Part shown: positions 5,860 to 15,568 of the stretch, one piece after another
How the letters are laid out: every line of letters begins with the position of its first letter
Numbering within the stretch: the first letter of the stretch is position 1
From: a virus
Reading direction: 5' to 3' (one strand)
IMG/VR virus record: IMGVR_UViG_3300024502_000013
Span: 9,995 to 73,994 of that record
DNA: 64,000 nucleotides
The notes under the pieces: model-generated
The model's database searches: none
What the model was told of the DNA's origin: nothing
What the model saw: only the letters and a program-made list of their open reading frames with translations
Made by a program: the position numbers and the translations under genes

Positions 5860-5976
5860 CTTAGTCCCATCGGGATGGGAAGCTAGCGTACCTGTGTTAA
5901 GCTAGTAAAATATCCACAGGTGCCAATGCCTTCGGGGTTGGCAAAATTTATTAACTCGCTTATTAAGGAGAAAACC

Positions 5977-6414
5977 ATGACAGATTTATTCAGTCAATTC
6001 CGTAAATTTGACCCATTTTCTATTGGATACAATGAAGTGTTCAAAGAGTTGGAGTCCATGTCCAAAGCTGTTGCAAAAGCTGCAACATATCCTCCATACA
6101 ATATCAAACAAGTCAAAGACAACAAATTCGTTATTGAAATGGCTGTTGCTGGATTTGCAAAGTCTGATATTGAAATTACACTTGAGGGCAACAAACTTGT
6201 CGTTAAAGGTAATACACAGGAAGAGGATGCACCTGATAACTTCTTGTACAAAGGTATCGCAAATCGTAATTTTACCCGTGAATTCAAATTAGCCGACAAG
6301 GTTGAGATTGAAAATGCCGAACTTGTTAATGGTATGTTGAAAATCGGTTTACAGAATATGGTAAAAATTCAAGACCAAGTTAAAAAGATTCCTTTGTCCG
6401 CAAAAAATGACTAA
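5977..6414 (+). CDS. small heat shock protein Hsp20
   Basis: YPPYNI..IEMAVAGF..KGIANRNFTREF..NGML; AAGGAG RBS. Confidence 0.95.
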   Translation: MTDLFSQFRKFDPFSIGYNEVFKELESMSKAVAKAATYPPYNIKQVKDNKFVIEMAVAGFAKSDIEITLEGNKLVVKGNTQEEDAPDNFLYKGIANRNFTREFKLADKVEIENAELVNGMLKIGLQNMVKIQDQVKKIPLSAKND

Positions 6415-7177: not shown

Positions 7178-7337
7178 TTTAAACTCCTTATACTATAATA
7201 GTATATAGAATTATGAACATTTTCATAAACTATCACAACGATTAATAAAATCAATTAGATTTTCATTTAAAATAGTGATATACTATGATAAGTAATCTAT
7301 GAGGTTACTTAATTTTTTAATACTTGAAAGGGAAAAA

Positions 7338-7871
7338 ATGAAAACAGTTGGTGATAAATTAGAAGCATTTGCCGTAACAGGCATCAATCCTGGTAAAGAT
7401 GATTTTTTTACTATTACAGAAAAATCATTTGAGGGCAAATGGAAAGTGATTGTATATTATCCAAAAGATTTTACATTCGTTTGTCCTACAGAGATTGTTG
7501 CATATGATAAGTTGGCACAAGACTTTGAGGACCGTGATGCAGTTCTTTTGACTGGCAGTACAGATAATGAATTCTGTAAATTGGCTTGGCAAAATGCACA
7601 TGAAGATTTGAAGAAAATCAAACACATTCAATTTGCTGACACTCAGCGTGGTGATTTGAGTTTGATTGAACAGTTGGGTGTATTCTATGCACCTGCTGGT
7701 GCTGCTCTTCGTGCAACATTCATTGTTGATCCTAATAACGAAATTCAACATGTCACTGTGAACAACCTCAACGTTGGTCGTTCTCCAGAAGAAACCTTGC
7801 GTGTATTGGATGCATTGCAAACTGGTGAATTGTGTGCATGTAACCGTAAAGTTGGTGGGGAGACACTATAA
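7338..7871 (+). CDS. ahpC: peroxiredoxin AhpC
   Basis: YPKDFTFVCPTE, ALRATFIVDP, GRS..E, resolving Cys. Confidence 0.95.
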   Translation: MKTVGDKLEAFAVTGINPGKDDFFTITEKSFEGKWKVIVYYPKDFTFVCPTEIVAYDKLAQDFEDRDAVLLTGSTDNEFCKLAWQNAHEDLKKIKHIQFADTQRGDLSLIEQLGVFYAPAGAALRATFIVDPNNEIQHVTVNNLNVGRSPEETLRVLDALQTGELCACNRKVGGETL

Positions 7872-8377
7872 TGGCATTCATCGAGCAAGTCAAAGATGCC
7901 TTGCCTGATTACGCAAAGGACACCAAGTTAAATCTTGATGCTGTCCTTTTGCGTAGTTCATTAGATGTGGATGTGGCTATGGGTTGTGCCGTAGCTGCAC
8001 TTGCCGCAACAGGTAATGGTAAAGTGTTGGCTGTTATGTTAGCGGACAATCCTGTCCATGCTGCAAGTGCTATGACAGCCGCAAGTTTGATGGCACAAAA
8101 CAACGTATGGTATCCATATGTTGAAATGGCAGACGACGAACAACTGAAGGGATTGCCAGCACAGTTACGCATGAACGCTATTGCAAATCATGGCGGAACC
8201 ACTAAGGCAAACTTTGAAGCATTCAGTCTTGCAGCAAGTATTGTTGGTAAGTGTCATTTCTGTGTCAAGGCACACTATGATACCTTGAAAAAGGAAGGTT
8301 ATACTGTTGAACAACTTCGTGATATAGGTCGTATCGCATCAGTAATGAACAGTGTGGCAAAAGTTTTAAATAGCTAA
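7871..8377 (+). CDS. ahpD: alkylhydroperoxidase AhpD
   Basis: LPDYAKDTKLNL, MAQNNVWY, CHFCVKAH (CxxC). Confidence 0.92.
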   Translation: MAFIEQVKDALPDYAKDTKLNLDAVLLRSSLDVDVAMGCAVAALAATGNGKVLAVMLADNPVHAASAMTAASLMAQNNVWYPYVEMADDEQLKGLPAQLRMNAIANHGGTTKANFEAFSLAASIVGKCHFCVKAHYDTLKKEGYTVEQLRDIGRIASVMNSVAKVLNS

Positions 8378-9962: not shown

Positions 9963-10083
9963 TAGGATACTTACAGCAAAAAATATTTCGCCTTCTAAGC
10001 GAGAGGTTGTTGGTTCGAGTCCAACTTTTTCCACTAGGGAAAAATAGCGCAATTGGTAGCGCACTAAAAAGAGTATCCTGTTG
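9963..10083 (+). ncRNA. CAGCAA-scaffold RNA A carrying a circularly permuted tRNA-Arg(TCT)
   Basis: Stem AGGATACTT/GAGTATCCT, ACAGCAA; cargo order is anticodon arm, T arm, acceptor stem, D arm. Confidence 0.8.
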
Positions 10084-10102
10084 TTTAAATTAAGGAGGAT
10101 GT

Positions 10103-11021: not shown

Positions 11022-11170
11022 TTTGTTTAGTGTTGTCAAGGTATCGTCATGGGACGCTTTGACTATGGGGTTGAGGGTGCGACCGGCAAGACCCCTGATA
11101 TAACTGCTACTCGCTCGTCAGTGCTAGCTACATTGTTGACAAATAGGCGGACAACACTAAACAAATGGTA
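11017..11170 (+). ncRNA. structured spacer RNA closed by a perfect 21-bp inverted repeat
   Basis: TACCATTTGTTTAGTGTTGTC / GACAACACTAAACAAATGGTA with inner hairpins. Confidence 0.55.
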
Positions 11171-11174
11171 GTAT

Positions 11175-11603: not shown

Positions 11604-11678
11604 GCCGGATTAGCTCAGTGGTAGAGCAACCGCCTTGTAAGCGGTAGGTCGTCAGTTCAATCCCGACATCCGGCACCA
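11604..11678 (+). tRNA. tRNA-Thr(TGT)
   Basis: Loop CTTGTAA, CCA. Confidence 0.95.
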
Positions 11679-12069: not shown

Positions 12070-12143
12070 GCCCCGATAGCTCAATGGCAGAGCAAACGAC
12101 TGATAATCGTTAGACCCAAGTTCGATTCTTGGTCAGGGTACCA
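12070..12143 (+). tRNA. tRNA-Ile(GAT)
   Basis: Loop CTGATAA, CCA. Confidence 0.92.
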
Positions 12144-12147
12144 GTTT

Positions 12148-12213
12148 TAGGATAGTTCCAGCAACAATAAAAGCATTCAACTTGTAATTGAAAACGCAAA
12201 ACCTATCCTGTTG
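12148..12213 (+). ncRNA. CAGCAA-scaffold RNA B carrying a Thr(TGT) anticodon stem-loop
   Basis: AGGATAG/CTATCCT, CCAGCAA, TTCAA-CTTGTAA-TTGAA, CCTGTTG. Confidence 0.75.
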
Positions 12214-12218
12214 TTTAT

Positions 12219-12292
12219 GTCCCGCAAGTGTTCCGGTAGCACGAGAGTCTCCAAAACTTAAGGACGGGGTTCGATTCCCTGGCGGGGCGCCA
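12219..12292 (+). tRNA. tRNA-Trp(CCA)
   Basis: Loop CTCCAAA, G73, CCA. Confidence 0.88.
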
Positions 12293-12310
12293 TAAAAGAA
12301 AGGTGATTAT

Positions 12311-12787
12311 ATGAGAAATTTCGACGCTAATGAAGTAAAAGAATTCCTTGCAAATCAAGGACCTGATACCCGTGTATACTTGGGTGCCGACTCTGAAAGA
12401 GTAAGAGTTAATGGCGTATGGTATGCTGACTATGCTTTGGCTGTCGTTATTCACATTGATGGTCGCCATGGTTGTAAAATCTTCGGTTATGTTGACCGTG
12501 AATTAGATTACGACCACAAGAAAAGTAAACCTGCTATGCGTCTGATGACAGAAGTATATAAAGTATCTGAATTGTTTCAAGAATTACAAGAAGTGTTGGA
12601 AGATTTTCATGTTGAAGTTCATTTGGACCTAAACAAGAATGATGAATTCGGTTCTTCTTGTGTTGTGCAACAAGCGATTGGTTATATCAAAGGTACATGT
12701 AATGTTACACCAATGGTAAAACCAGATGCACCAGCTGCATCGTTTTGTGCCGACCGTTTGAAACGTATTCTTGCAGAACAGGAATAA
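12311..12787 (+). CDS. RNase H-like YkuK/DUF458 family protein
   Basis: YLGADS, RLMTEV..S, EVHLDLN, VKPDAPAASFCAD. Confidence 0.8.
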   Translation: MRNFDANEVKEFLANQGPDTRVYLGADSERVRVNGVWYADYALAVVIHIDGRHGCKIFGYVDRELDYDHKKSKPAMRLMTEVYKVSELFQELQEVLEDFHVEVHLDLNKNDEFGSSCVVQQAIGYIKGTCNVTPMVKPDAPAASFCADRLKRILAEQE

Positions 12788-12788
12788 T

Positions 12789-12863
12789 GCAGCGTTTGGT
12801 GTAATGGAAGCACACGAGTCTGTGGAACTCGTAGACACGGATCGTAACCGTAACGTCTGCCCA
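12789..12863 (+). tRNA. tRNA-His(GTG)
   Basis: G-1/C73 pair, loop CTGTGGA, CCA. Confidence 0.85.
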
Positions 12864-12873
12864 AAGGAATTTT

Positions 12874-13119
12874 ATGGAAGTAAAACATACTGTTGATACT
12901 CGTGGTGAATATTGTCCAATACCTATGATTAGCACACTCAAGGTTCTCAATCTTATTGAAATAGGAGAAAGAATTGAGGTGTATGCTTCAGATGAATTGT
13001 ATGAGAAACACCTAGGTGAATTAGTTGATGAAGGTGTTTGTAAAGTCATTCACCAAAATGAAGTAGGTTTTACCTCTCATTTTATTCTAGAAAAAACTGC
13101 ATCGTTAGCTCAGCGGTAG
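12874..13119 (+). CDS. TusA/SirA-like sulfur carrier
   Basis: VDTRGEYCPIP (CPxP), IEVYASD. Confidence 0.8.
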   Translation: MEVKHTVDTRGEYCPIPMISTLKVLNLIEIGERIEVYASDELYEKHLGELVDEGVCKVIHQNEVGFTSHFILEKTASLAQR

Positions 13120-13173
13120 AGCTGCGCCCTTACAAGGCGAAGGTCGGGAGTTCAATCCTCTCACGATGCACCA
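13099..13173 (+). tRNA. tRNA-Val(TAC)
   Basis: Loop CTTACAA, CCA; overlaps the upstream CDS. Confidence 0.93.
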
Positions 13174-13174
13174 T

Positions 13175-13250
13175 GCAACTTTAGCTGATGTGGTCATAGC
13201 GGCGGTCTGAAGAACCGTTGAACCAGGTTCGATTCCTGGAGGTTGCACCA
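13175..13250 (+). tRNA. tRNA-Phe(GAA)
   Basis: Loop CTGAAGA, CCA. Confidence 0.92.
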
Positions 13251-13252
13251 CT

Positions 13253-13326
13253 GCTCCTATAGTTTAGTGGTAAAACAAATCCATGGTAAGGATTAGATGT
13301 AAGTTCGATTCTTTCTAGGAGCACCA
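13253..13326 (+). tRNA. tRNA-Thr(GGT)
   Basis: AATCC-ATGGTAA-GGATT, CCA. Confidence 0.88.
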
Positions 13327-13481
13327 ATCTGTTTCATTTCAATTTTTTCCAATGGCTGCGCTTGCCTTGGTTCAAAAGATGGTGTAAAATCTCTTTCTGT
13401 TGTAGAGAATTTTCTTTCTATATACGGATATTGTTGTGCAATAAGCCGTAGTTCTTTTGTAGGATCGGTTTTTTTCTGCAT
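13293..13481 (-). CDS. small antisense ORF inside the tRNA array
   Basis: Fills a tRNA spacer; AATAAATA late-type box just upstream on the minus strand. Confidence 0.45.
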   Translation of the reverse strand: MQKKTDPTKELRLIAQQYPYIERKFSTTERDFTPSFEPRQAQPLEKIEMKQIGAPRKNRTYI

Positions 13482-13493
13482 CAAGTATTTATT

Positions 13494-13570
13494 GCCCCGG
13501 TGACGGAATTGGTATACGTGTTGGTCTTAGAAACCAAATTTTAGGAGTTCGACTCTCCTCTGGGGCACCA
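13494..13570 (+). tRNA. tRNA-Leu(TAG) with short variable region
   Basis: Loop CTTAGAA, Leu-type D arm, CCA. Confidence 0.9.
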
Positions 13571-13574
13571 ATAT

Positions 13575-13649
13575 CTGGCGTTAGTATAATGGATAATACA
13601 GCTGCCTTCTAAGCAGTCAATAGAGGTTCGATTCCTCTACGCCGGACCA
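13575..13649 (+). tRNA. tRNA-Arg(TCT)
   Basis: Loop CTTCTAA, CCA. Confidence 0.93.
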
Positions 13650-13652
13650 AAT

Positions 13653-13735
13653 GCGCCTATGGTGAAATTGGTAGACACAGGAGACTTAAAATCTCCCGCT
13701 TCGGCGTGCTGGTTCGATTCCGGCTAGGCGCACCA
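13653..13735 (+). tRNA. tRNA-Leu(TAA)
   Basis: Loop CTTAAAA, variable arm with UUCG loop, CCA. Confidence 0.93.
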
Positions 13736-13736
13736 C

Positions 13737-13765
13737 TTGCCAAAAGTTAAAGGATGATATATAAT
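13737..13765 (+). promoter_or_regulatory. sigma70 promoter
   Basis: TTGCCA-17-TATAAT. Confidence 0.65.
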
Positions 13766-13774
13766 ATATTCTAT

Positions 13775-13850
13775 GCGGGTATAGCTCAGTTGGTAGAGCG
13801 AAACCTTGCCAAGGTTTAGGCCATCGGTTCGAATCCGATTACCCGCTCCA
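13775..13850 (+). tRNA. tRNA-Gly(GCC)
   Basis: Loop TTGCCAA, U73, CCA. Confidence 0.95.
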
Positions 13851-13857
13851 ATAAAGC

Positions 13858-13886
13858 TTGACTCTACAAATTTTTTGTGTTATAAT
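13858..13886 (+). promoter_or_regulatory. promoter for scaffold RNAs C/D and the TROVE-like gene, containing the reverse complement of the boxA leader
   Basis: TTGACT-17-TATAAT; TGACTCTACAAATTTTT is the reverse complement of AAAAATTTGTAGAGTCA. Confidence 0.75.
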
Positions 13887-13904
13887 CAAGTTTGGAAAAT
13901 TTTT

Positions 13905-14057
13905 TAGGTAAGGTTCAGCAAGAACGTCTAAAGTGAAAGTTGGTAAACTATGGTAAACATTGGAGCTTGACGGCTTTGAAGGTGTTTATTGAAATAGAAC
14001 TAACAAGGAGAGTTTCGATTTCTCTCTGTAATCAAAAAGTAGGAAACTTACCTGTTG
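13905..14057 (+). ncRNA. CAGCAA-scaffold RNA C with a long structured cargo including a T-arm-like hairpin
   Basis: AGGTAAG/CTTACCT, TTCAGCAA, GAGAG-T-TTCGATT-T-CTCTC, CCTGTTG. Confidence 0.7.
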
Positions 14058-14061
14058 TTTT

Positions 14062-14122
14062 TAGGTTACTTTCAGCAATTTAAAAAACTTTTATGTCAAA
14101 AAAGCCAAAAGCGTAACCTGTT
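14062..14122 (+). ncRNA. CAGCAA-scaffold RNA D carrying a GTC (Asp) anticodon-like hairpin
   Basis: AGGTTAC/GTAACCT, TTCAGCAA, CTTTT-ATGTCAA-AAAAG, CCTGTT. Confidence 0.7.
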
Positions 14123-14140
14123 ATTTTGAAAGGAAATGTT

Positions 14141-15568
14141 ATGAACACTTTTGTGAATGCCGTTATGAATCAAGAAGCTCGTACCACTAATGGTATGAAG
14201 GCTCGTAAGTCTACCGCCAGTGCGGTCGTGGACTTGTTCTATAACATTGGTGCAAGCCGTGGCAAGGACATTGTTCCTGCTTTTACCGCTGCATTGGTTG
14301 AGAACCGTGAGTTGGCACTCCGTGTAGCTGCATGGGCTCGTGATGCTCGTGGTGGTGCAGGTGAACGTGAATCGTTCCGTAACATCCTCCGTTATTTGGA
14401 AAAGACTGATGTTGAAGCCGCAAAGGCACTCTTGGCTAAAGTTCCTGAACTTGGTCGTTGGGATGACATTTTTGTTTTCCAAACCGATGTGATGAAGTCT
14501 ATGGCTTATACCATGTTGGGTGACGCTTTGCGTTCTCGTAATGGTTTGGCTGCAAAATGGACTCCACGCAAAGGACCTATTGCGGCAGAAATTCGTGCGT
14601 TCTACGGAATGTCACCAAAATTCTACCGTAAGTCCTTGGTTGAATTGACCAAGGTTGTTGAAACCCAAATGTGTTCTAAAGAATGGGATGCCATTAACTT
14701 TAGTCATGTTCCTTCCGTAGCAGCTGCTCGTTATAAGAAGGCCTTCAACCGTAATACTCCAAAGTATGCGGAATATGTTGCCGAACTTATGAAAGATCCT
14801 AAGGATCGTACCATGGAAGTGAAGGTCAATGCAGGTGCGGTTTATCCGTATGATGTATTGAAGGGTCGTATCAGCCACTACTTGCCTTTTGACAAGACCG
14901 AATTGGACTTGATTCAAAAGCAATGGGAAGCATTGCCAAACTATGTAGGTGACGCAAGTATACTACCTCTAGTTGACGTTTCTGGTTCTATGTCCTGCCA
15001 TGCAGGTACGAACACCAAATTGTCTTGTTTAGAAGTTGCAGTGTCTCTTGGCCTGTATCTTGCAGACAAGAACAAGGGTAAGTTTAAGGATACCTTCCTG
15101 ACTTTCTCTGGTAGTCCAGAACTGATGCACCTAAAAGGCAACATCAACCAAAAGATTGACCAAATGGTTAAATCTAATTGGGACATGAACACTAACCTGA
15201 ACAAGGCATTTGAAAAAATCCTTGACACTGCGGTGAAGGGTGGTGTTCCACAAGAAGAAATGCCAGCGATGGTGTTGATTCTGTCTGACATGCAGTTTGA
15301 CGGTTGCGTTGAACATGATGACAGTGCAATTGAAATGATTGCACGTAAGTACCAAGAAGCTGGATACGAACTTCCAAAGGTTGTATTCTGGAACTTGAAT
15401 GCTTCATATGGCAACAGCCCTGTGAAGTTTGACAAGTCTGGTACTGCTCTGGTATCTGGATTCTCACCAGCAATCGTGAAACCTTTGCTGAGTGGAGACC
15501 TAGATGGTTTCACACCAGAGTCCGTGATGCTTAAAACCATCATGGATGAACGTTACAAAGTAATTTGA
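14141..15568 (+). CDS. DUF2828-type TROVE/Ro60-like helical protein with C-terminal vWA (MIDAS) domain
   Basis: RDARGGAGER, GRWDD, AAKWTPR in the N-terminal region; VDVSGSM, NTNL, ILSDMQFD, VFWNL in the vWA region; AAAGGA RBS. Confidence 0.8.
   Translation: MNTFVNAVMNQEARTTNGMKARKSTASAVVDLFYNIGASRGKDIVPAFTAALVENRELALRVAAWARDARGGAGERESFRNILRYLEKTDVEAAKALLAKVPELGRWDDIFVFQTDVMKSMAYTMLGDALRSRNGLAAKWTPRKGPIAAEIRAFYGMSPKFYRKSLVELTKVVETQMCSKEWDAINFSHVPSVAAARYKKAFNRNTPKYAEYVAELMKDPKDRTMEVKVNAGAVYPYDVLKGRISHYLPFDKTELDLIQKQWEALPNYVGDASILPLVDVSGSMSCHAGTNTKLSCLEVAVSLGLYLADKNKGKFKDTFLTFSGSPELMHLKGNINQKIDQMVKSNWDMNTNLNKAFEKILDTAVKGGVPQEEMPAMVLILSDMQFDGCVEHDDSAIEMIARKYQEAGYELPKVVFWNLNASYGNSPVKFDKSGTALVSGFSPAIVKPLLSGDLDGFTPESVMLKTIMDERYKVI

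Follow-up and report, generated by a model that had tools for sequence, protein, structure and literature searches.

In a 64,000-nucleotide stretch of phage DNA (hereafter the window), two short plus-strand elements of ~65 bases each, B and D, are very probably partner RNAs of a Ro60-like protein on which a mimic of a tRNA anticodon arm is mounted. The window comprises positions 9,995 to 73,994 of the IMG/VR record IMGVR_UViG_3300024502_000013, a 73,994-base viral contig from river metagenomes, and contains 27 tRNA genes between ~9.6 and 16.1 kb, a region in which B, D and two larger relatives, A and C, also lie. Each of the four elements is built from two modules, a constant handle that joins the ends of the element and a variable cargo enclosed by it. 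A preliminary description of this DNA had read B and D as scaffold RNAs displaying free-standing anticodon stem-loops, a modular library of baits whose identity might track the host tRNAs that are cleaved by defence nucleases.

A covarying handle and arm in element B

The four elements share a single frame, AGG-N4-N3-CAGCAA ... N4'-CCUGUU(G/A)UUU, in which N4 and N4' are mutually complementary and differ in sequence from copy to copy (Table 1). The 3' motif CCTGTTRTTT occurs four times in the window, always at elements A–D, where 0.5 occurrences would be expected, and the 5' handle pattern has four exact plus-strand matches, again elements A–D, plus one minus-strand match (0.14 expected). C6, C9, A10 and A11 of the 11-nt motif within the handle are invariant across all high-confidence elements of the family. 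Pairing of AGCAA with the UUGUU tail in a pseudoknot was examined and dropped, since the tail of D (UUAUU) breaks it. Reading the hairpins of B and D as terminators or processing hairpins was likewise rejected: no U tract follows either hairpin and no terminator is listed at either element.

Element B starts 5 nt past tRNA-Ile(GAU), which ends at 12143, and stops at the 5' end of tRNA-Trp (12219). As previously described, it holds a hairpin with the stem UUCAA/UUGAA (12176-12180/12188-12192) and the loop CUUGUAA (12181-12187), which is identical to the loop of the phage tRNA-Thr(UGU) gene at 11604-11678, features C32, U33, A37 and A38 and displays the triplet UGU (12183-12185). Twenty-one B-type elements from related loci (the B series) were aligned over their full length. 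Throughout this series a closing helix of 2-3 bp encloses the arm, with a 5' spacer of 1 nt (A) and a 3' spacer of 3 nt (AAC or ACC), and 98% of cells pair, compared with 28-42% when the partners are slid. The outer helix of the handle is 100% paired with compensatory changes in three of its seven pairs, while the arm stem features such changes in three of five. The loop reads C-U-U-N-U-A-A: five positions are invariant, C32 is nearly so and variation is confined to nucleotide 35, which is G in 12 elements, U in five, C in three and A in one. All four variants match canonical loops of real tRNAs (Thr UGU, Lys UUU, Arg UCU and Ile UAU). The same design is found at three loci where the associated protein is only 41-44% identical: L106 (69.8 bits, loop CUGCUAA), L110 (CUUUUAA) and L105 (CUCUUAA).

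Anticodon-like hairpins are enriched among homologous cargos

IMG/VR contains 223 relatives of the Ro60-like protein, and 80 of their loci (68-88% identity) were taken for a comparative analysis; loci encoding relatives number roughly 7,900 in all. A strict scan identified 174 high-confidence elements in 71 loci, window included, with a bimodal distribution of cargo length (73 short and 101 long). The best hairpin has a 7-nt loop in 33 of the 59 distinct short cargos, on a stem of exactly 5 bp in 30 of these 33, and a hairpin in which 5 bp or more close a 7-nt loop featuring U33 and a purine at position 37 (R37) is present in 33/59. Mono- and dinucleotide shuffles yielded 0.9-1.6 cargos bearing such a hairpin (maximum 7 in 500), so the observed number represents a 20- to 35-fold excess. 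Per kb, U33/R37 hairpins number 3.6 in the elements and 5.9 in tRNA genes, compared with 0.44 elsewhere in the loci and 0.72 in equally AT-rich windows, so the elements show a 5- to 8-fold excess over genomic background. Of the 7-nt loops closed by 5 bp or more (n = 32), 26 feature C32, 30 U33, 29 A37 and 29 A38, while the base composition of the short cargos overall is 13% C, 28% T and 49% A, the last of these figures bearing out the A-rich linkers noted earlier around the arms. Position 37 also obeys the tRNA rule for the triplet (NNU-A, NNA-AA and, at L100, UAG-G). Homologous cargos display UGU, UUU, UCU, UAU, UGA, GGA, GUU, GCA, GCU, CUU and other triplets.

The preliminary description had proposed tabulating homologous cargos for 7-nt loops with U33, a purine at position 37 and varying triplets, and this combination is strongly enriched. 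Since 5-bp/7-nt hairpins with C32/U33 and A37/A38 are enriched and their triplets vary, the structural side of its proposal, a modular set of anticodon-arm mimics that share one scaffold, is supported.

It is very improbable that these cargos are decayed remnants, either captured tRNA genes whose arm-only forms are deletion leftovers without selection, or chance AU-rich hairpins. Whole, permuted and arm-only tRNA-like cargos do coexist, as a reduction series would predict, the arms are thermodynamically marginal, and some loops deviate by C33, G33, U37 or a length of 6, 8 or 9 nt. However, decay is difficult to reconcile with a loop that stays constant but for nucleotide 35 and a stem with compensatory changes in 21 elements whose linkers have diverged, or with the excesses over shuffles (20- to 35-fold) and genomic background (5- to 8-fold). 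The recurrence of the closing-helix-plus-arm design beside the distant proteins of L105, L106 and L110 argues against it further.

The elements accompany a gene for a predicted Ro60-like protein

The 475-aa product encoded downstream of D matches Pfam DUF2828 and DUF7788 as well as PHROG 850, annotated as 'RNA-binding protein'. It has no Pfam TROVE match, and phmmer against PDB sequences finds nothing at E-values up to 10. An AlphaFold2 model built on 99 diverse relatives has a predicted local distance difference test score (pLDDT) of 93.6 and a predicted template modelling score (pTM) of 0.92, and its top 13 Foldseek matches are all Ro60/Rsr/TROVE proteins, including the Ro60 of Thermus phage phiLo, aligned over the whole length with E-values of 2e-8 to 2e-6 and TM-scores of 0.35-0.64. 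Residues D279, S281 and S283 of the MIDAS are invariant among relatives. The model indicates that the gene probably encodes a Ro60-like fold, comprising a HEAT-repeat ring and a vWA domain with a MIDAS.

A covariance model, R1, was built from the B-type alignment and used to search 80 distant bacterial or metagenome-assembled genome contigs (protein 33-70% identical) and three cultured phages. Almost all hits (76/78) are on the strand of the gene and mostly within ~700 nt upstream of it, and many loci feature one handle element directly before the gene. The protein family is present in 696 cultured phage records, and the handle was found in all three cultured phages examined (KVP40, the Felix O1-like UAB_Phi87 and mycobacteriophage UPIE, one of whose cargos reads UUUCA/AUGGUAA/UGAAA), so that laboratory strains could serve for assays of binding, processing and defence. 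Scanning viral contigs with the distant representative P0233 yielded a single locus, without a clear element. In KVP40 (L169, ~5960-6010), the handle adjoining the gene carries a very short cargo and the ATG of the gene lies inside the 3' stem strand AAUGUC, an arrangement that hints at translational control by the protein itself, acting through the handle.

An RNase H-like gene (PF04308) is encoded within the tRNA island of the window (12311-12787) and, in KVP40 (L169, 7482-8012), directly after the Ro60-like gene. By tblastn, PF04308 is detected in 43/80 close viral loci and 0/80 distant genome contigs, a link confined to the T4-like lineage. The tRNA island also features TusA-like and phosphoesterase genes beside it.

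Element D belongs to a more variable series

Element D is located in the leader of the Ro60-like gene and ends 14 nt before the ATG. Its handle reads AGGUUAC-UUU-CAGCAA (14063-14078) ... GUAACCU (14113-14119), followed by GUUAUUU. The hairpin reported earlier is present with U33 and A37, and the phage tRNA-Thr(GGU), with the loop AUGGUAA, does feature A32 as well. Eighteen elements with the handle type of D, D included, make up the D series (alignment A3), in which a 5-bp/7-nt hairpin is found in 14 members on seven different stem sequences, with U33 in 13 of the 14. The loops include CUUUUAA, CUUGAAA, CUGGAAA and CUGUUAA, along with the less canonical AUUGAUA, CUUUUUA, CGGUUAU and CUUGUUC. 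GUC loops occur at two other loci, as a canonical Asp-type CUGUCAC (L123) and as the 8-nt CUGUCAAU (L105). The term Asp-like that had been applied to D is not secure: the Asp reading comes from this one sequence, and the triplet varies among its relatives. D would thus be a somewhat degenerate member of an arm-displaying series that is itself mostly canonical, an assignment made less surely than that of B.

The location of D, 14 nt before the ATG and after a promoter-like site and element C, could also indicate a cis-acting operator, where the protein would bind the leader handle and regulate its own synthesis, with the hairpin as a spacer or stability element that has no anticodon meaning. 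The KVP40 handle with the start codon in its 3' stem strand, the presence of one element directly before the gene in many loci, the U/A runs around the D hairpin and the variable loop length of its closest relatives all fit such a role. Nevertheless, we consider it distinctly improbable: the same leader position holds B-type elements with a perfect Thr-type arm at L008, L009, L026 and L041, and the D series is mostly 5 bp/7 nt with C32-U33 and A37-A38. An operator is, in any case, compatible with a partner RNA rather than opposed to it.

Larger cargos and points against anticodon display

The long cargos include two tRNA-like kinds, one in normal order and one circularly permuted as in element A. 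The normal-order kind consists of a D arm, an anticodon arm, a variable region and a T arm, and its acceptor stem is fused with the handle. Anticodon loops in these tRNA-like cargos are CUUCUAA, CUUUUAA, CUUAUAA, CUUGAAA, CUGCAAA and CUGUAAA. The cargo of element A scores 31.2 bits with the tRNA model and 33.3 bits with the YrlA model (RF02553).

Other long cargos sit in the same handle without being tRNA-like. The C-type cargo (126-160 nt; 13906-14060 in the window and ~5500-5800 of L006-L085) is a conserved composite RNA that comprises a hairpin resembling a T arm (GAGAG-UUUCGAU-UUCUC), another, long hairpin centred on CUGGAGC...UUGAAGG and a 3' AAUCAAAAAGUAG box, and it matches no Rfam family at gathering score. 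Two more long and conserved non-tRNA classes, which include cargos containing GGAGGACCACCG(C/A)AAGGUG, are found at L010, L015, L016, L037, L052 and L067 (186-197 nt) and at L063-L085 (204-240 nt).

Several observations weigh against the interpretation of the elements as anticodon-arm mimics. By nearest-neighbour rules, the isolated arms of B and D have free energies of +0.1 and +0.7 kcal/mol, respectively, compared with -5.8 kcal/mol for the arm of the phage tRNA-Thr; minimum-free-energy folds of B and D show neither arm, and their z-scores are near zero. Covariation was relied on because single-sequence folding predicts neither arm. It is therefore covariation, and not predicted stability, that supports the hairpin pairing, and in isolation the arms are not predicted to fold stably as a tRNA anticodon arm does. 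The description of the stem-loops as free-standing is overstated given this marginal stability and the 2-3-bp closing helix around the arm of B. D has A32 and a stem set in U/A runs where the register can slip, three of its 17 relatives have 6- or 8-nt loops (AUGAAA, AUUGGA and CUUGAAAA), and in a fourth the loop is closed by an A.C mismatch. Neither the triplet nor the loop length of D is kept among its closest relatives, and the whole triplet varies in the series. In addition, D resembles the U-run/loop/A-run middle of the Dictyostelium Class I RNAs (RF01414, discussed below), and the Class I middles that were read are not anticodon-like.

Across the wider family, many cargos, the C type among them, are not tRNA-like, so anticodon display cannot be the common function of the whole family. 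The anticodon-like share of short cargos falls between about a quarter and a half in more distant lineages. For these distant loci, a loose regular expression gave 136/370 wrong-strand hits and was replaced by stricter filters and the covariance model. Of the resulting model hits, 24/46 are anticodon-like, which is an upper estimate because the model favours sequences with a 5-bp/7-nt hairpin, and a cargo-blind scan gave about a quarter. Cargos of the Felix O1-like phage and of UPIE also include C33 or G33 loops. C33 or A33 replaces the universal U33 in the otherwise tRNA-like loops CCGGUAA, UCGCUAA and CAGUUAA at L170 8392-8517 (UAB_Phi87), L171 4163-4212 (UPIE) and L152 3889-3951.

Two further points concern the reader of the arms. 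The displayed triplets show no tie to any nuclease and duplicate those of complete tRNAs in the same phage. Base modifications, on which anticodon nucleases such as PrrC rely in part, may not be acquired by a minimal arm.

Processing and proposed function

Family-wide, an element is separated by 6-7 nt from the preceding tRNA gene and by 9-12 nt from the following one, and on account of this spacing, release by ordinary tRNA maturation would be expected. C, D and the Ro60-like gene are preceded by a promoter-like site. Four metatranscriptome studies of rivers include RNA-library contigs that span B and D with 95-100% identity. These were not used as expression evidence, as such contigs cannot show transcription, ends or strand and may reflect DNA carry-over. 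A related strain's RNA-library contig (run X7) diverges just upstream of element A (9961) and reads ...CUGUUGUUUU; this strain may have another handle element at the position of A.

In the model that we prefer, B, and less surely D, would be small non-coding RNAs cut from phage tRNA transcripts. The handle (a 7-bp end-joining stem, the single-stranded N3-CAGCAA and a 3' CCUGUU tail) would anchor the RNA to the Ro60-shaped DUF2828 protein, in the way that Y RNAs attach to Ro60 through their stem. The particle would then present the variable module, which reproduces a tRNA anticodon arm in its 5-bp stem and its 7-nt loop featuring C32, U33, A37 and A38, as a fake anticodon loop to a loop-reading protein. 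Preferably, the module would serve as a decoy or competing substrate that engages the host anticodon-loop nucleases by which translation is shut down in infection, and a single base change at nucleotide 35 would retarget it. As a complete explanation, we lean towards Y-RNA-like partner RNAs of the DUF2828 protein that show anticodon-arm mimics, preferably as decoys; a decoy directed at defence nucleases specifically is put forward tentatively. If correct, the arms would represent a new class of RNA anti-defence against tRNA-cleaving immunity.

Three lines of evidence favour a decoy. Nucleotide 35 alone switches among near-identical elements, which looks like arms-race variation. An isolated 21-nt anticodon stem-loop is a sufficient substrate for the defence nuclease Cas13b6 (PMC13692257), and jumbo-phage genomics already groups TROVE proteins of large phages with counter-measures to anticodon-loop cleavage (PMC7824862). 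A comparison of the displayed triplets with the tRNA genes of the same phage gave no signal (45/61 matched, compared with 41.7 ± 2.8 by permutation), and phages with handle elements carry nearly full tRNA sets. The triplets GCA, UAU, UCU and UGA are displayed in permuted tRNA-like or arm-only cargos at L069 4111, L012 3027 and L018 26 and 344, where the fetched, incomplete loci have no ordinary tRNA gene for the displayed triplet, which may mean nothing. Aminoacyl-tRNA synthetases were rejected as a common reader of the arms, as the displayed arms include Ser and Leu types, whose synthetases (SerRS and LeuRS) recognise their tRNAs without reading the anticodon.

As the main alternative, the arms could act as a tether or gate, as in classical Y RNAs, recruiting a tRNA-handling enzyme to the Ro60-like ring or filling the tRNA site of the ring. 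Candidate enzymes would be a modification enzyme reading U36-A37-A38 or A36-A37-A38, a repair ligase or kinase, or an exonuclease, and the role would be quality control or repair of damaged tRNAs rather than that of a decoy. The loops keep exact 36-37-38 signatures, which are those read by the t6A, i6A and m1G enzymes, and the tRNA island has the TusA-like, RNase H-like (PF04308) and phosphoesterase genes. Y RNAs link Ro60 to polynucleotide phosphorylase (PNPase), the tRNA-like module of bacterial YrlA is acted on by tRNA enzymes (PMC4201824), and the Ro60 of phage phiLo, with its Yrl RNAs, binds host PNPase (PMC12135203). Despite these precedents, a tether appears unlikely. A housekeeping partner predicts a conserved identity, yet nucleotide 35 switches in near-identical elements and the whole triplet varies within the D series. 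Moreover, no RtcB or RNA-ligase gene is seen beside the Ro60-like gene in the window, and the PF04308 link is limited to the T4-like lineage. Were the arms tethers, they would name partners of the Ro60-like particle.

Genomic context

The window encodes a sliding clamp, a clamp loader, a family B polymerase, a UvsX-type recombinase and a DnaB-like helicase, which points to a T4-like phage. Megablast against 50,697 phage records returned short tRNA matches only, and the phage therefore has no close cultured relative among them. An Rfam scan of the window at gathering scores found tRNAs only and gave no family name for the elements, the coordinates of which are listed in Table 1.

Table 1. Handle elements A–D, their parts and associated features in the window
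Feature	Position	Strand	Remarks
Element A	9964..10086	+	Same handle; encloses a complete tRNA-like body in circularly permuted order, anticodon-arm loop CUUCUAA
Element B, whole RNA gene	12149..12218	+	82.9 bits with model R1, although B is one of R1's own sequences
B handle, 5' half	12149..12164	+	Strand AGGAUAG (12149-12155), linker UUC, CAGCAA (12159-12164); stem covaries
B cargo	12173..12197	+	Closing helix GC 12173-12174 / GC 12196-12197, spacer A, arm 12176-12192, spacer AAC
B handle, 3' half	12203..12218	+	Strand CUAUCCU (12203-12209), tail GUUGUUUAU
Promoter-like site TTGACT-17-TATAAT with TG	13858..13886	+	Ahead of C, D and the gene; 11/12 matches, consensus match only
Element C	13906..14060	+	Same handle; 126-nt cargo with T-arm-like hairpin; type conserved upstream of the gene at many loci
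Element D, whole	14063..14126	+	34.7 bits with Rfam RF01414; 41.8 bits with model R1
D hairpin	14088..14104	+	Stem CUUUU 14088-14092 / AAAAG 14100-14104, loop AUGUCAA 14093-14099
Ro60-shaped protein gene (DUF2828 + DUF7788, 475 aa)	14141..15568	+	Presumed partner of the handle

Within the tRNA island, a 148-nt stretch between tRNA-Glu and tRNA-Lys (11025-11172) is bounded by a terminal stem of 13 bp (GUUUAGUGUUGUC / GACAACACUAAAC). A CAGCAA handle is absent, the fold has a z-score of -1.24 and the stretch matches no Rfam family. Neighbouring genes for an AhpC/TSA peroxiredoxin and a CMD (AhpD-like) protein lie just upstream of the island (7299-8377). An open reading frame at 18-1079 matches the Druantia defence family DruA (Pfam PF14236, E-value 1.4e-20), which is unexpected in a lytic-type T4-like genome.

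Comparison with known systems

Ro60 and Y RNAs are conserved from bacteria to humans, yet in bacteria the tRNA-like part of Y RNAs has still to be explained. The handle family could represent a minimal form of this part, which is sometimes just an anticodon arm that copies real tRNA loops. Because arm-only cargos copy real loops and the specificity base changes among close relatives, the anticodon loop is indicated as a working end. In searches of the open-access literature on DUF2828, TROVE and RNA repair, Ro60 in phages and anticodon-nuclease decoys, no description of these RNAs was found, nor was an Rfam family for them.

In bacteria and phages, canonical Ro60 proteins bind Y RNAs from genes that adjoin their own (PMC4201824, PMC12135203). 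As in the Ro60/Y RNA systems (YrlA/YrlB, RF02553), several small RNAs are encoded per genome on the same strand as, and next to, a gene for a ring-shaped protein of the TROVE+vWA type; D lies 14 nt and B ~2 kb upstream of the Ro60-shaped gene, the product of which belongs to the DUF2828 branch and is not annotated as TROVE. The architecture is also similar, with a terminal stem that joins the ends, an adjoining conserved single-stranded motif and a variable module that mimics tRNA. In contrast, the phage handle features N3-CAGCAA and a CCUGUU tail where YrlA has GNCGAA(N)G, and B and D have no T arm, D arm or acceptor stem, although element A has these arms. YrlA mimics the T arm, D arm and acceptor stem, with its 'anticodon stem' opened into the Ro-binding stem, whereas B and D show only a closed anticodon arm. 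None of the elements reaches the YrlA gathering score of 69 bits (33.3 bits for A, no hit for B or D), and judged by these scores and motifs they are not YrlA members. Yrn1 of Deinococcus radiodurans has, between its T-like and D-like arms, a hairpin with a 5-bp stem that has been modelled as an anticodon arm (Chen et al. 2014, PMC4201824). That hairpin differs in its 6-nt loop, has no variable arm or anticodon-type sequence and is part of a larger tRNA-like fold, whereas the phage arm is solitary and reproduces real anticodon loops exactly.

T4 polynucleotide kinase and ligase repair the damage done by PrrC, and a T5 tRNA-Lys variant acts against PARIS. Phage tRNA genes have been discussed as a counter-defence to anticodon nucleases (PMC7824862, PMC11455837). 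Like these genes, the handle elements are phage RNAs in tRNA clusters, and anticodon loops matter in conflicts with nucleases that cut tRNA loops; the most frequently displayed triplets (UUU, UCU, UGU, UAU, UGA and GUU) are typical of phage tRNA sets. Counter-defence tRNAs, however, are complete, decode and replace cleaved host tRNAs, whereas B and D, which lack the acceptor end, T arm and D arm, cannot be charged. Any part that B and D play in such a conflict would be that of ligands and not of spare parts.

A close likeness of the handle is found in the Class I RNAs of Dictyostelium (RF01414), which have a 5' G, a short covarying stem, an 11-nt motif, a CUGU end and a variable middle within ~60 nt (Kjellin et al. 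2021, PMC7919456). The phage elements share the conserved 5' G, an end-joining stem of 6-7 bp with many compensatory changes, and the motif (C)CUUACAGCAA directly after the 5' stem strand. The 11-nt Class I motif CCUUACAGCAA, in which positions 3, 6, 9, 10 and 11 are most conserved, corresponds to UUACAGCAA in A, UUCCAGCAA in B and UUUCAGCAA in D. The 3' ends are similar too (...C-UGU in Class I, genomic CCUGUU in the phage), as are the sizes, at ~42-65 nt in Class I and 57-61 nt from stem to stem in the phage. Curated D. discoideum Class I sequences read GUUGAC-CUUACAGCAA-...-GUCAAC-UG, often with a U-run/loop/A-run middle like that of D. RF01414 aligns D end to end at 34.7 bits and does not report B, while five related phage records score 29-36 bits (at most 36.2); no phage element reaches the cut-off of 41.5 bits. 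Class I RNAs differ in being eukaryotic nuclear genes with a Dictyostelium upstream sequence element (DUSE) promoter, reported as unique to Dictyostelia, and their known binder is the RNA recognition motif protein Rnp1A (PMC7919456). The phage elements are non-eukaryotic, carry anticodon-like arms and sit below the Rfam cut-off.

The likeness could reflect either homology or convergence on a similar protein. In the broadest proposal, the stem-CAGCAA-CUGU handle would be a universal docking signal of the DUF2828 Ro60-like branch, from the phages of many bacterial phyla to the Dictyostelium Class I RNAs, on which phages mount decoys retargeted at nucleotide 35 (UGU, UUU, UCU and UAU) as an evolving anti-defence library; in this full form we regard it as rather doubtful. 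The motif-for-motif match of the handle nonetheless suggests a testable protein partner for the Class I RNAs, which have been described as unique to social amoebas.

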